From Eledone cirrhosa (taxonomy: Eukaryota), in the NCBI GenBank assembly GCA_964016885.1, contig OZ024755.1, positions 4,526,001-4,590,000 of the forward strand: DNA of 64,000 nt. Direction: 5' to 3'. A program made the position numbers and the translations under genes. Each line of letters starts with the position of its first letter. The first letter of the stretch is position 1. Shown one piece after another: positions 3,463-61,098 of the stretch. The notes beneath the pieces were generated by a model. The model was not told the DNA's origin. It saw only the letters and a list, made by a program, of their open reading frames with translations, and did not search any database.

Positions 3463-3523
3463 TTTCATTTACCAGTGGTTTCTTAAAAAGCAAAAAATTT
3501 TGCTTTCAATCATCAGAATGAAA
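3463..3523 (-). ncRNA. Type-I hammerhead ribozyme motif
   Basis: UUUCAUU-CUGAUGA-[stem II]-GAAA-CCACUGG-UA^AAUGAAA; 7-bp stem I, GUA triplet. Confidence 0.8.
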
Positions 3524-4486
3524 AAATCCTGGCGTATTTATTGACTTTGGATTTTAAATATATATATATTATATATATATATATATATATATATATATAT
3601 TATATATATATATATATTATATATATATATATTATATATATATATATTATATATATATATTATATATATATATATTATATATATATATATTATATATATA
3701 TATATTATATATATATATTTATATATATATTATATATATATTTATATAACGGGTTCCCTTGTATATTTGAACTAAACGCTGTTGAAAAAGTGGTTTCCTC
3801 GTTCATCATTCTACCAGAAGCCGGATATTTTTTATGTAAGCTGACGGCAACTGATTTAGGAGCCGCAGAAACCCAATTGCTGGAATTTACCATCTTTCTA
3901 GTGGGTCCGGGTAAAGATTTTTCATTCATATATATTATTATTTGTCTGACCTGAATTTTCTTGGTCGTTTTTTCGGCTGTGCGAATGATCGTCTCAGTGT
4001 GTTGGTATTTAAACGTTAGTTATAGCTCTGGTTTATCCAAGCTATTGAGCACTTTGCCACACATCTCGAAGATTGCGTTTCGTTATTTCGTGGGCCGAGA
4101 TTCCGATTCTCGATAATTTATTTGTATATATTATATATATATCATCATCATCACATATATATGTCATCCTCATCATCACCATATATATATATACACTTAT
4201 AGCAACATATCCTATTTCAGGAAGGACCACTTCATGGATTCCATATTTCTCCTTATATGAATTTTATGAAGAAATTGGAAGTGAGTTACCGAGAGCTGTT
4301 ATTGTCTGAAATGTGTTCTAAAACTGCAAGTAAAAATCTAGTGACATAAAATAATTCCATCTACTTCTTCAAAATGGTTTCATCACTTCATTATTTATTG
4401 TCTCAACCATCAGATCATCTCTAAATGATGAAATAAAAGGTAATTTATAGCTCACACCTATGTAGGTTTAGCTGGCCTTCTATGAG

Positions 4487-4798
4487 GTTGTATCTCATAG
4501 GTTTCTTGGGTGTTTTAATGATAGGGACTCCAGCCCTATCATGTTACAGCTCCTACCTATGTTGGTTGTATCTCATAGGTTTCTTGGGTGTTTTAATGAT
4601 AGGGACCCCAGCCCTATCATGTTACAGCTCCTACCTATGTTGGTTGTATCTCATAGGTTTCTTGGGTGTTTTAATGATAGGGACCCCAGCCCTATCATGT
4701 TACAGCTCCTACCTATGTTGGTTGTATCTCATAGGTTTCTTGGGTGTTTTAATGATAGGGACCCCAGCCCTATCATGTTACAGCTCCTACCTATGTTG
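4487..4798. repeat. 78-bp tandem repeat x4 inside a CORE-like SINE
   Basis: Near-identical units. Confidence 0.92.
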
Positions 4799-7114
4799 GA
4801 AGTGTTTTGCTCAAGAACACAACCGAGTCCAGGAATCTAACTTACAACATTATGATTGTAAGTCCAACACTCAGGATTGACATAAGCCATATAATTTATC
4901 CTAGTACATTACTGGTACTTATTCTATGATCTCTAGACTGCTAGGAAACAGTCAGACTTAGTGGGATTTTAACTGAGAATGTGAAAGGAACAGAACTAAA
5001 TACTTTAAGACATAAACAATCATTCTACTGTTTCTTCCAGATATGTCCAACCCTTGCTAACAGGGAAAGTGGACGTTTAAACAACGATGATATTGATATA
5101 ACCTGGTACTGTATTATTTCTGTCATTTCAGCAGCTTTAATAAATTTATCGTTGGAAATATTTTCTTTAAATTCACATTATTCTATTTTCTTTTGTTTTA
5201 TAAAAACAAAAACTTTGAATTTCATTTAATATTAACTAACATTTGACATTAACTGAAAACTGAGACAAAGGAATATTGATTCTATATTAGGATCAATAAT
5301 CTACCATTATATATTATTAATTGGTTGTGTGGTTAAATATTTGGCTTTGAAACTACATGGTTTCTGGTTCAATACCAGTGCATGACACCTTGAACAAGTC
5401 TCACTGCAATCTGGGCAATGGCTTGTGAATGAAATTGGTAAAAATGAACCTGCACAAATACACATTGTTCAGATGACATAATGTTATCTAAAATGTTTTT
5501 AAGTGTCATTTAGAGTATAGTTTGTTTTACTATTTCAACAAGTTTCTCAATTCCTTTTAGCAGACAACAATAACAGCATCTTTTGACTGTATGTAATGAA
5601 TACATATCTTCCATGTTTGCAGGGTTGGTTTAAGGTGTTTGCTCAGTGTTTTGTGTACTGATTGGATCAATAAAGTCGTATTTTTGTGTGTGTATATATA
5701 TATATATATATATATACACACATGGACGTAAGTGTATGTGTGTATGTCAATGTTTCAATAGACAAGATGTATGTGTGTTACAATTCATTTAAATGTGTAT
5801 AACTTTAAATCATTCCATCACCCGGAGACAAATCTGCCGATATGTAAATTGATTTAAAGTCAAATTATAATTTATTTCTTTTGTCTTTTTTAAGAAGTTG
5901 GTATTAAAAAAAAAATTACAAGACAACAGTGAAAGTTTATCATTTATTTTTACATAATTATTGAGATGAGCAACAATAGCAGTACAGCTGAGTCCTGTAC
6001 ATTGAACAGTTTCAACAGTCATGAAGGTAGAGTTTATATTTTCGGTTTTTTTTACACTAAACCAAGTCACATTTGAAACAGAAGGGACAGAAAAGAAACC
6101 ACAATAACTCCAATGGTACACACAAATAAATATATATATATATATATACACACACAGAAAAAAAAAAAAAAAAACAGTTGTGAAATTTCGAAATATACAA
6201 AAGGTATTTTTATACAATATTTCCATGTATATACGCACACATATATCTGTATGTATATATATATATATATATTTTACACACACACCTATATATTATACAC
6301 ACACACACATATGTGTGTGAGAGTGTATGTATATGTCTGTATTTGTGTAAGAGTGTACGTACACACACATATATGTATATATGTGTGTGTGTGAGAGAGA
6401 GTGTGTATGTACATATATATGTTAATTGAATAAATGTGTATGTATCAACAAATTACACATATATTCAAACGTTTGAACATTTAATGAAAGACAAAAAAAT
6501 ATATGATATGTTTTCCAGACATCTGTCTGTGATCAATTTTATACGAAGTTGTAAATTGTGGTGTGTCTGGTTTAAAAATTACAACTGATACCTTCATGAG
6601 ACACTCCGACCTGTACATTCACCCACAGACACGCGTGCCGATATACATAGCAAGGAAAGATAAGGGAAGAATCGATCTATTTTACATTATCTGCACACAC
6701 ACAAATTAAAGAGCTATTGCAGATATATATATATATATATAGAGAGAGAGAGATTATTTTGTATACATATCCATTGATAGGATATGAAAAAAATAACAGC
6801 TTTTAAATGTTTATGAATACTTTGCTTATACATGTGAGTTGTATAGCATATATATAAGTTAAATGTTAAGATATGGAGAGATAAAGAATCCAGTCTTTTA
6901 CAGATATACATACTCAAGACATTTTCTTTAAAATAAATTCTTCCTGGATCTTTTTGTTATATTAATGTCATGGACATTAAACAATATATAAGTTATTTTG
7001 TAAAAGTCATCTAAATAATAATTTGTTTTAAATAGTCATGATATTTCAGAGTTTTCCAAACTCAAAGCAAACGAATTATATTCATATTCAAAGATCTCCA
7101 AATATAATAATATT

Positions 7115-7314
7115 GGTTTCTTTTTTGGAGGGGAGAAGAGGGGGAAAGTCGATTAAATCAACCCCAGTGCATGACTGGTACTTTATTTTATCGACCTCGT
7201 AAGGATGAAAGGCAAAGCTAACCTCAACAGGATTTGAACTCAGAACGTAAAGGGCCATAACTCTATGCCACGAAGCATGGTGTCCGACGCTCTACCGATT
7301 ACTGCCAATCCACC
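7115..7314 (-). mobile_element. tRNA-derived SINE family A in the probable EPG5 3' UTR
   Basis: Full head and body. Confidence 0.8.
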
Positions 7315-7547
7315 AATATATATAAAATAAGTTTTACAGAAAACATTTAAAACTAATTTTTTAAAAAAACTAAAACATTTCAGTTTCCAGCAATGAAATC
7401 AACAAGGAAGAACTCCAAATTCCTTAAGACATTTAAGGGAGGGAACTGAGTTCACGTTTGCTTGTTGGATCATTAGCTGAGAGTAAATTAAGATATAATG
7501 TGTCGATTATCTCTAGCCTTATAAGACATTATGTCATTTAAACAGAG

Positions 7548-7860
7548 TCAAGGTGTGAGTGGGGGTAAATTCCCAGCCCAGTAACCTTTGTGAGAATAAA
7601 ATGAACGTACTAAATACTCCAAAAGTTTCACGGAATCGTGGAAAACATTGGCTGGGTTGACAACAAAATCTGAGCAGTAGTTTATTGTGGTTAACAATGA
7701 GCAATACTGTCGGTTAGTTTTAAGATTTCTGAGAGCATTCAATGCCTGTTTACCCGGTGAGAGTAATACTATAGACATCTCTGGATGAACCCGTAAAGTA
7801 AGATCGGGATGCAGCGTTGTTTGGAGGAAAACATACAAAGCACGACAAGTAAGACGGAAT
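7548..7860 (-). CDS. EPG5: EPG5 terminal coding exon 46 ([13 protein letters not shown])
   Basis: tttcag acceptor, phase 2, ends at TGA 7548-7550. Confidence 0.92.
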
Positions 7861-59700: not shown

Positions 59701-60144
59701 GCAATCAAATCTCCCTCGAAAACAGCGGGTAATATAACGTTAGTCGTAAAATAGACTGTTTGAATAAAAAAAATGGGATGGTCATAAGTGGAAGGTGTTT
59801 AATCATAGATCTGCCTGTTGCTCGACCATTGCTGACCTGGAGTTAAATAACAACCAAGTCTATAGCAACTACTATATCACATCTCCAATAAATAGCAGAC
59901 GACACAACATCCTGGACGAACTAACGGGTTAATTCTCATCGGGTTTGCTGGTTCTGCTAGAAATAGCAGCCAAATCTTCCCTCAGAAGATTTCACACTAG
60001 GACACAGAGGATGATATAATGTAGTCGTAAAATACACTGTTTGAATAAAAAGACAGGATGGTCATAACTGGATTGTGTTTGTTTGATCCTGTACTGCGGT
60101 TAAATAACCAATTCTACAGCAAATCGATCTTATTTCCCATTCTT

Positions 60145-60180
60145 TCTTCTGATGAAGAACTAGCGTACGAAATGTTAAGA
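60145..60180 (+). ncRNA. Minimal (Penelope-type) hammerhead motif, partly decayed
   Basis: UCUU-CUGAUGA-AGAACUAGCGUAC-GAAAU-GUU^AAGA. Confidence 0.5.
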
Positions 60181-60462
60181 CCCTCTTCCTGCTATTTCAA
60201 GTGTTAACCTAATATATTCCTTCCATATACTGTACCGATTGTGTTGTTATTTCTATTTCTGTTTACCTTTTATATATATGTGTGTGTGTGTGTGTGTGTG
60301 TGTGTGTGTGTGTGTGTGTGTGTGTGTGTGTGTGTGTGTGTGTGTGTAGATCCCGGGTTAAATCGGGGATAACCACAGTAAGTAAGGTACTCAATACATA
60401 GCAGAGTAAAAGTAATTTAATATAGAAATGGCTTCTACGGGACTAGAACTGTTTCATTCTGG

Positions 60463-60514
60463 GGCTTTCTGATGATTTCCTCCGAAATGAAACAGTTCTA
60501 GTCCTGTAGAAGCC
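60463..60514 (+). ncRNA. Type-I hammerhead ribozyme motif within a fold-back element
   Basis: GGCUUU-CUGAUGA-UUUCCUCCGAAAU-GAAA-CAG..CUG-UA^GAAGCC. Confidence 0.65.
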
Positions 60515-61033
60515 ATTTCTATATTTTTAAATATATATATATATATATATAAATGGTGTCCCAAAAATGTATACACAATTACTTACAGGGTGGCTTAATT
60601 CCCTGATATATTCAAGTATGTATATATATATATATATATAGTAATACAGGCAATATTTATTAGACTGCTGTTGAAATGTGTATACATATTACAGGAACAC
60701 CCTGTATACACACACACACACACACACACACACACACACACACATATATATATATATATATATATATATATATATATATATATATATATATATATATATG
60801 TGTGTGTGTGTGTAAAAGTTCTATTTAAATTGTTGGGATACAACAAGCAAATATTTTTATAACTGATATAAAGCACTCAACAAATATTTGGAGTAAAAAT
60901 ACGATATTAACAAATGGAAACTATATTTATAAAACCATATTTATTTCATTATACATATTTGGGAGCTGCCAACAGTAATGGTTGCATTTTTTAAGGGTAT
61001 ATCAATATTTATTTATAAAACTGATCTATATTA

Positions 61034-61098
61034 TATTTTGTCTGATGAAAGCACACCATAATTTAACTTGGTGTCCTTGAAATATGTATAATGAAATA
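61034..61098 (+). ncRNA. Type-I hammerhead ribozyme motif, sister of 51898-51964
   Basis: UAUUUUGU-CUGAUGA-AAGCACACCA..UGGUGUCCUU-GAAA-UAUGUA-UA^AUGAAAUA. Confidence 0.8.

Follow-up and report, generated by a model that had tools for sequence, protein, structure and literature searches.

Type-I hammerhead motifs in and around EPG5 of Eledone cirrhosa as probable 3′ ends of truncated Penelope-like elements

The DNA analysed here is a stretch of 64,000 nucleotides from Eledone cirrhosa (GCA_964016885.1, contig OZ024755.1, positions 4,526,001 to 4,590,000; "the window"), which holds the host gene EPG5 and, in and around it, nine motifs that we class as type-I hammerhead ribozymes by their core order and stems, with self-cleavage as a prediction only. 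Our analysis suggests that these motifs are, very probably, the 3′ pseudo-long-terminal-repeat (pLTR) hammerheads of 5′-truncated insertions of Penelope-like elements (PLEs), mostly of the Hydra clade: inert passengers in which cleavage would be weak and dispensable for integration. The coding span of EPG5 occupies 7548..58200 on the minus strand, with the first coding exon at 58200, a long intron 1 and more than 40 further exons. Its exon map consists of 45 tblastn pieces and a stop at 7548; the exon at 28055-28288 shares 91% identity with an Argonauta hians protein that bears the name EPG5 homolog, and the putative start ATG at 58200 (-) was deduced from the N-termini of homologues. Pfam gave no match over its cut-off on three EPG5 homologues, and an Atlas search at 0.9 returned no match. 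The introns of the gene hold five of the nine hammerheads, intron 1 having four and the last intron a single one, and the other four lie outside it.

Our strict descriptor required the exact core (CUGANGA, GAAA and UH) in type-I order together with three stems. Motifs are named by the coordinate of C3 in the customary hammerhead numbering, and the predicted cut follows H17. On the minus strand C3 and H17 stand at 3516/3470, 8087/8000, 51956/51906, 52247/52167 and 55081/55052, and on the plus strand at 55103/55132, 60149/60176, 60469/60508 and 61042/61090. The strict descriptor catches eight of the nine, while 60149 was detected by a relaxed descriptor only. Dinucleotide shuffles of the window (200 at each of three block sizes) gave means of 0.21-0.29 matches and a maximum of 2, with none of the 600 reaching eight, and six scrambled cores run on the real window yielded zero or one match each. 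A previous sequence-only reading of the window had reported the full core at eight or more loci, and the eight that it placed are real, its coordinates being the low ends of the motifs (55017 being the start of a hairpin); counts of similar size in shuffled DNA, which it had held to speak against the motifs, were not seen.

The 3516 motif (hammerhead 3462-3524, cut after 3470, GUA) lies downstream of EPG5 in the truncated 3′ end of a Hydra-family element at 3434..3558 (-), with the short 3′ end and (TA)n on both sides. A 200-N assembly gap at about 3003-3202 stands beside this locus, and a 104-codon open stretch of ordinary composition, with no Pfam match, adjoins the insertion at 3705-4019 (-). 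On the sense strand of the last EPG5 intron, 7950..8177 (-) is a member of an old family (other copies 76-93%) with a long stem II, no linked open reading frame (ORF) and an inverted fragment at 8139-8177; its hammerhead spans 7992-8095, with the predicted cut after 8000. Intron 1 contains, both in sense, a truncated Hydra-family 3′ end with tail at 51757..52077 (-; hammerhead 51898-51964, cut after 51906, AUA) and a short copy with an inverted tail and no linked ORF at 52113..52372 (-; hammerhead 52159-52255, cut after 52167, GUA). The fold-back insertion at 54949..55166 carries hammerheads on both strands, at 55044-55089 (-) and 55095-55140 (+), and a tail on its left arm only; its 149-nt hairpin of -121 kcal/mol buries both. 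Three insertions follow on the plus strand outside the gene. The first, 60122..60279, is a truncated copy with a classic minimal hammerhead (60141-60184), mutated in the window copy and with no linked ORF; the second, 60350..60525, is a fold-back with an inverted tail (hammerhead 60461-60516, cut after 60508, GUA, 14-nt stem III insert). In the third, 60813..61131, an inverted tail and half arm (60813-60960) precede a direct copy (hammerhead 61034-61098, cut after 61090, AUA). The inverted half arms lie at 60419 and 60909.

That the pairings hold, as had been claimed, is not true of every window copy: 60149 differs from its family by an A.A mismatch in stem II and a U.G in stem III, and 55081 and 55103 are mismatched at 2.1/1.1. 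The short near-palindromic stem III that had been described applies to part of the set, since stem III of 60469 has 14 nt and the palindrome is broken in 8087 and 55081 (self-duplex -0.7 kcal/mol). Self-duplexes of stem III in the window copies range from none to -12.8 kcal/mol, and in the 3516 and 60469 families the stem can close as a monomer; the 60149 family has a 4-nt palindromic stem III and an extra base after A9. Folded alone, only 3516 adopts the hammerhead as its minimum-energy structure (1/9), and the three canonical motifs that have long inverted arms lie in hairpins (-62 to -121 kcal/mol) whose pairing takes in some or the whole of the motif. An Rfam cmscan of the window gave 198 matches; the 150 listed include no hammerhead family and consist of microsatellite-driven miRNA noise and two tRNA-like matches. 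RF00163 does detect another hammerhead family in this genome (18 matches among 74 scored), one with the canonical G10.1-C11.1 pair (L021-L030; L numbers denote loci retrieved from the genome), which likewise ends in (TA)n.

Each of the eight window segments was searched in its own genome and 40 of 40 scored candidates matched every time, out of 84 to 3,429 first-look candidates per family. All are thus multi-copy, as expected from the earlier proposal of several sequence-distinct families. Copies are variably truncated at the 5′ end and finish 3′ in (TA)n. Judged by the distance to the next microsatellite, six of seven families scored have two fixed 3′ ends about 70-100 nt apart, and the seventh, 60149, has essentially one. 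A (TA)4+ run lies within 200 nt 3′ of the cut in 48 of 50 motifs, compared with 27% of random positions, which upholds the reported association with (TA)n. The AATAAA said to follow the cut closely is found within 40 nt in three of eight window motifs, and in 30 of 50 when a systematic sample of the genome is included, largely through one superfamily; the elements have (TA)n and no poly(A) at their end. Inverted truncated copies are common on the 5′ side (within 5 kb upstream in 23 of 42 motifs of the systematic sample), and in the four fold-backs of the earlier reading's list the tail stands on one arm only. Such inversions, an optional tail and hammerhead-bearing pLTRs in partial tandem, all seen here, are on record for PLEs (PMC8557442). 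In the 60469 family the junction of many fold-backs lies no more than 5-10 nt from where the hammerhead core has its 5′ end, which makes stem I a hot spot of truncation. The idea that 52247 and 60149 have fixed, SINE-like (short interspersed element) 5′ ends was dropped: in 52247 that end proved to be an inverted tail, and some copies of either family reach further. Contigs from three sequencing runs compared with 51560-52400 gave many divergent copies only, and an empty site was not found among them.

Over about 1 Mb of retrieved loci, a bait-biased and partly overlapping set, the descriptor made 330 matches that fall into 48 clusters, 27 of them with at least two members. Covariation was scored in 15 hand-picked sequences that belong to one superfamily or to neighbours of it, including one that is a column out of alignment: 92.5% of cells are paired and double changes occur in 16 of 19 pairs, a result that none of 500 shuffles reached and that compares with 35-53% in slid controls.

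ORFs for a reverse transcriptase (RT) that has a GIY-YIG endonuclease at its C-terminal end, a linkage that had been suggested, are joined to five of the eight window families and to a variant-core family, Y, described below. In the 61042 family, ORF, untranslated region (UTR) and hammerhead share one strand in L031 and L032, with matching pieces in L033 and L034. In the 51956 family a pLTR with tail is followed by an ORF start (RWR/DKT) in L068 and L071, and in the 55103 family L087 and L089 each have the end of the ORF some 200 nt upstream of the hammerhead and on its strand. The 3516 family has a TG-rich UTR common to L164 and L165, contiguous in L165 with an ORF carrying RWK, DKT and CxCX5C. 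For the 60469 family, ORF and hammerhead lie 4.6 kb apart in L162, and L197 and L194 carry the post-ORF and pre-hammerhead segments. An ORF in L077 near a 52247 copy, and others near L037, L111 and L113, were not counted as links, with (TA)n lying between. The L077 ORF (2415-3140, minus strand) is a PLE ORF of another type, with a CxxC linker, a CCHH-like GIY-YIG and a weak Pfam match to PF01541; we take it to be Neptune/Nematis-like.

The Hydra clade is defined by a C-terminal GIY-YIG, RWK, DKT, CxCX5C and CxxC/CxH, and by the lack of CCHH (PMC8557442). By regular expression and visual check, our element ORFs, 31-65% identical to one another, contain RW[KR], DKT, YRDD, CxCX5C, CxxC and CxH and lack the CCHH type. 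The C-terminal endonuclease with its CxCX5C linker is present in L031, L165, L162, L089 and L218, and the L068 fragment stops before it; RWK and DKT occur in L165 and RWR and DKT in L068 and L218, the other three ORFs being truncated before this region. The endonuclease position sets these elements apart from Naiads, in which it is N-terminal. Pfam run on 31 ORFs gave none over the cut-off, and GIY-YIG appeared below it on two ORFs outside these families, so the GIY-YIG assignment is based on motifs and homologues. With the L165 RT as query, 1,250 relatives were found at E ≤ 1e-30; among the 120 listed, 91 are full length, each Hydra motif occurs in 86-91 of these 91, and the CCHH type in none. 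Published Hydra hammerheads have the U...U junction and the stem III type seen here, the supplement of the same study gives a (TA)n preference in 26 of 27 Hydra families, and it includes Hydra-1_Obim of Octopus bimaculoides (PMC8557442). By their protein motifs we assign the linked families to the Hydra clade. Some of the 3′ UTRs, 1.5-4.6 kb long, are mostly TG/TA microsatellite (L162:1267-5914, L164, L165), and Hydra elements may themselves spread microsatellites. The unit of family Y measures 3.26 kb and the 60469 family is longer, compared with a Hydra tendency towards less than 3 kb. Together, the shuffles, the multi-copy families and the linked ORFs all favour the multi-family, microsatellite-associated ribozyme retroelement system put forward by the sequence-only reading.

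Two further (TA)n fold-back families in the window, X and Y, escape a search for CUGANGA. Family X has a 6-bp stem III, and its intact copies elsewhere carry U3-A8 or C3.A8 cores, of which U3-A8 is already published (PMC4209133); 36 of 53 occurrences are fold-backs. Its three window copies, at 50792..50982, 55578..55780 and 57135..57274 (all plus strand), are fold-back half copies without the 5′ core, the first retaining the 3′ half of the hammerhead with a long stem III. Family Y has three stems and a U...U junction, and its core reads CAGAAGA. Its fold-back copy at 37275..37465 (+), antisense in an EPG5 intron, has A at core position 4 (C3 37402, H17 37441) and an inverted tail on the left; 55414..55558 (+) is a half copy truncated inside the core, with tail, and 63480-63589 a fragment of the tail only. 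The sequence-only reading had counted about eight decayed or half copies; those found are 50792-50982, 55414-55558, 55578-55780, 57135-57274, the arms at 60419 and 60909, and 56887..57072 (+), a decayed fold-back copy of the 60469 family. The copy at 37402 belongs to a variant-core family and is not decayed.

The A4 core is fixed in family Y. Of its 25 distinct occurrences, 18 preserve the family sequence throughout the core, with A4 in every one; the remaining seven have a cut or a join within the core, and one of these reads U4 at a fold-back junction. Genome-wide, a 23-mer of the family has 19,051 matches with A4 and 77 with U4, and 10,383 copies are identical over the 52-nt motif. In L218 we found a 3.26-kb pLTR-ORF-pLTR unit with A4 in both pLTRs, a 645-residue open frame, the C-terminal part in another frame, and all Hydra motifs; L219 and L220 are 94% identical and more broken. 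U4 is part of the uridine turn and its mutants are poor (PMC9901934), and the A4 core is expected to be crippling. Our searches for U4A yielded no paper on hammerheads, the texts of PMC3088659 and PMC11014351 do not mention it, and no position-4 variant stands among the hammerheads tabulated in the supplement of PMC8557442; Fig. 5 of PMC3088659 and the supplements of PMC4209133 and bioRxiv 10.64898/2026.07.22.740005 may list one. Other variants occur as families too. Diverged U4C families with covarying stem II are found at L189:652, L194:898, L075:2385, L130:4293 and L078:1066, U4C being a known natural variant of low activity (PMC3088659), and two more U3-A8 families at L087:2278, L101:2970, L125:3182 and in L164, one with 9 identical copies among the retrieved loci. 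The U...U and C...A junctions, which we had considered as new, are already in the Hydra supplement (PMC8557442) and in PMC3088659.

Genome-wide, the motifs are abundant. Exact counts gave 66,685 for the 61042/51956 superfamily pattern and 24,294 for the 60469 superfamily pattern (each 0 in the reversed control), and 2,241 for one 33-mer of 55103. Over the three exact patterns this makes 93,220 canonical-core motifs with reversed controls at 0, a lower bound for the genome. The 60469-superfamily pattern is unequal between strands (13,300 forward, 10,994 reverse), perhaps owing to an array. The systematic sample of forty evenly placed 10-kb stretches held 57 matches, 15 of these in one tandem array, compared with 0.65 in shuffles. 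Extrapolating directly from it (3.2 × 10⁵, 95% 2.0-4.6 × 10⁵, array counted once) was rejected as too high, since the same procedure predicted 1.7 × 10⁵ for the pattern that truly counts 66,685; on that pattern the sample overshoots 2.6-fold (23 seen, 8.9 expected). A ratio estimate puts the total at 1.25 × 10⁵ (0.9-2.2 × 10⁵), and we take the genome to hold 1-3 × 10⁵ motifs. The window, at 125 per Mb, has 1-4 times the genome mean and lies below the densest sampled 10-kb stretches, which contain 5 and 6 motifs. Published counts, obtained with differing descriptors, are 126,247 in axolotl, more than 6,000 in Acropora and about 5,000 in Mytilus (PMC7229834), and about 9,000 in Xenopus (PMC4209133); by our arithmetic, again across differing descriptors, at least 31 counted motifs per Mb here compare with about 4.5 per Mb in axolotl. 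If the estimate is correct, 1-3 × 10⁵ motifs in 3 Gb would be among the densest ribozyme populations reported and a large source of intronic hairpins.

How such insertions might arise is suggested by PLE work elsewhere. The element protein would nick both strands of AT-rich or (TA)n DNA, and reverse transcription, primed at either of two internal RNA sites 3′ of the hammerhead, would produce the short and the tailed ends as well as the fold-backs. Copying that sets out immediately 3′ of the hammerhead and mostly breaks off early would leave the hammerhead in nearly every remnant, and new (TA)n runs would seed further insertions, piling families up. Cleavage would be weak, needing a dimer or the element protein; it may trim read-through transcripts and would not be required for integration. 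Most genomic copies, those in EPG5 included, would be inert. A Poseidon element in vitro indeed uses two RT start sites, extends both strands and still integrates when the hammerhead is mutated, and the anole hammerhead cleaves only with protein (PMC11167929); a short palindromic stem III implies slow cleavage as a dimer (PMC4209133). Copies starting at the cut site, a possible sign of cleavage, are not in excess, at 2 of 177 over seven canonical families and 3 of 37 in family Y, in line with uncut RNA as the template. Family Y, moreover, multiplied with A4 in its core. Several points weigh against this account. The cut-site count is biased, most loci having been retrieved with whole-hammerhead baits; the in vitro mechanism comes from Poseidon, not Hydra; and the covariation result leans positive, the sequences having been chosen by the descriptor and the structure drawn from them. 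The link for 60469 is the weakest, spanning a 4.6-kb microsatellite-rich stretch in two loci only, and L198, tried as a full-length 60469 element, has no ORF. Walking 0.3-0.9 kb upstream in the 8087, 52247 and 60149 families reached no ORF, and these could be non-autonomous or of another clade; the 60149 hammerhead is of the minimal, not the Hydra, type. Finally, stems kept across many subfamilies suggest that something selects on the fold, and this may be cleavage.

The most serious competing explanation, quite conceivable although on the whole we do not favour it, takes that last point further: cleavage would be a required step that releases unit RNA when transcripts read through or run in tandem, and in vivo dimers or protein would rescue Y's A4 core. 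Cores and stems are kept over the 27 clusters of two or more copies and covary in the 15 sequences scored, canonical cores are far commoner than fixed variants, and a stem III self-duplex is possible in every family, reaching -12.9 kcal/mol in Y; the protein-dependent anole hammerhead, and a U4C viroid variant active enough in vivo (PMC3088659), lend it precedent. Saturation mutagenesis, by contrast, left all single and double CUGA-turn mutants low except a C-G swap (PMC9901934), core mutants do not impair integration in vitro (PMC11167929), Naiads spread without canonical hammerheads (PMC8557442), and few copies begin at the cut. An opposite proposal, tentative and in our view somewhat doubtful, is that family Y is a catalytically dead natural hammerhead in a successful autonomous retrotransposon of more than 19,000 copies, its fold being read by protein and marking the RT start instead of acting as scissors; intact stems in a single young family are no proof that the fold is under selection. 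Were it true, Y and the fixed U4C, U3-A8 and C3.A8 families would show hammerheads kept in vivo as a fold.

We think it improbable that the window motifs are non-autonomous retrozymes spreading through small circular RNAs. Retrozymes derive from PLE pLTRs (bioRxiv 10.64898/2026.07.22.740005), three window families have no linked ORF, and a true tandem array of ~422-bp units, each with a hammerhead, does fill a 10-kb stretch elsewhere, a retrozyme-like satellite (L153, G000:C28:110000001-110010000). The window copies, however, show no head-to-tail repeat and vary at their 5′ ends, whereas their 3′ ends and inversions fit the PLE pattern and five families reach an ORF; of the two origins the sequence-only reading had offered, PLE pLTRs or retrozymes, the first holds wherever families were traced (five of eight). 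It is harder still to credit the intronic motifs as host-adopted regulators of EPG5 pre-mRNA. Four of the five canonical intronic motifs are sense and one antisense, and 8087 is some 130 nt short of the last 3′ splice site; but each is an ordinary member of a large family, several carry damaging changes of their own, the 38 kb from intron 1 to the last intron have no canonical motif, the sampled stretches with 5 and 6 are denser, and five motifs are few. The motifs do lie around and inside EPG5 as described, and that setting is incidental: nothing links them to the function of the gene, for which the insertions are probably of no consequence. Least credible, to the point of being practically discounted, is that the fold-backs are MITE-like (miniature inverted-repeat) DNA transposons, or that AT-rich sequence gave rise to the motifs by chance. 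The window is AT-rich and has short inverted repeats in TA context; yet the junctions vary between copies, just one arm has the tail, and both arms consist of pieces of RT-encoding elements. Shuffles give at most 2 matches and reversed-pattern controls 0. As the main explanation this reading is refuted by the shuffles, by the ORF joined to the 61042 family and by the full-length element of family Y.

The 3′ ends of truncated PLEs that we describe thus share with the Hydra clade (PMC8557442) the protein motifs, (TA)n targets, a 3′ hammerhead often with a U...U stem II junction, inverted 5′ copies and an optional tail. They differ in the length of the tail (~70-100 nt compared with 30-40 published), in 3′ UTRs that in some cases are TG-rich and 1.5-4.6 kb long whereas the published elements are generally <3 kb, and in numbering at least 9 × 10⁴ motifs genome-wide with one family fixed for an A4 core; by eye, the listed Hydra-1_oBim hammerhead is not among our 48 clusters. 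The minimal metazoan PLE hammerheads of Cervera and de la Pena 2014 (PMC4209133) are likewise type I with palindromic stem III in many families, mostly single truncated copies with opposite-strand pairs and a U3-A8 variant, and their extra base after A9 with G10.1-C11.1 matches our family 60149. Most families here, in contrast, do not have G10.1-C11.1, two have a stem III of monomer length, and the counts there are in the thousands (in Xenopus ~9,000). The Poseidon element from Anolis (Frangieh et al. 2024, PMC11167929) also has two 3′ ends defining a tail, AT-rich targets and a pLTR hammerhead, but belongs to another clade, and its ORF starts inside the hammerhead, here after the tail. Non-LTR retrozymes (PMC7229834; bioRxiv 10.64898/2026.07.22.740005) share type-I hammerheads in short repeats, and the L153 array fits them, while the copies in the window do not stand in tandem and go back to coding elements. 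Naiads resemble our elements in (TA)n targets, inversions, tails and occurrence in cephalopods, and differ in having an N-terminal endonuclease and no canonical hammerhead.

The Hydra clade is already known, as are its hammerheads, its preference for (TA)n and a member from Octopus (PMC8557442), and beyond that study by Craig et al. our searches listed no work on hammerheads in octopus. As far as our search of the literature reached, the new points are the number of families and copies, the greater length of tails and UTRs, and A4 as the fixed state of an autonomous family. The role of hammerheads in endonuclease-bearing PLEs has been stated as unclear (PMC8557442), and in the one in vitro study cleavage proved dispensable (PMC11167929). 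This genome offers matched natural material, with sister Hydra families that have canonical cores and a near-intact full-length one that spread despite an expected crippling core change, so that family Y is a natural test of whether cutting matters. The scale matters for cephalopod repeat annotation as well: the words hammerhead, ribozyme and Hydra are absent from the main text of a 2026 Octopus annotation.

Other repeats of the window include fragments at 62873-63238 (-) and 61470-61877 that resemble the restriction-like endonuclease end of a non-LTR element, with no Pfam match, and that are presumably CRE-like. Two 93% identical copies at 29281-29523 and 42560-42799 have tRNA-like heads over the Rfam cut-off and are probably a tRNA-derived SINE. 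Two other short repeat families with many copies occupy 20037-20225, 39044-39231, 47610-47819 and 48784-48974, and 13965-14176 and 36522-36874; one of the two forms a 250-bp palindrome. Long minisatellite arrays lie in and upstream of EPG5, at 10586-11625, 25111-25943 and 58244-59643.

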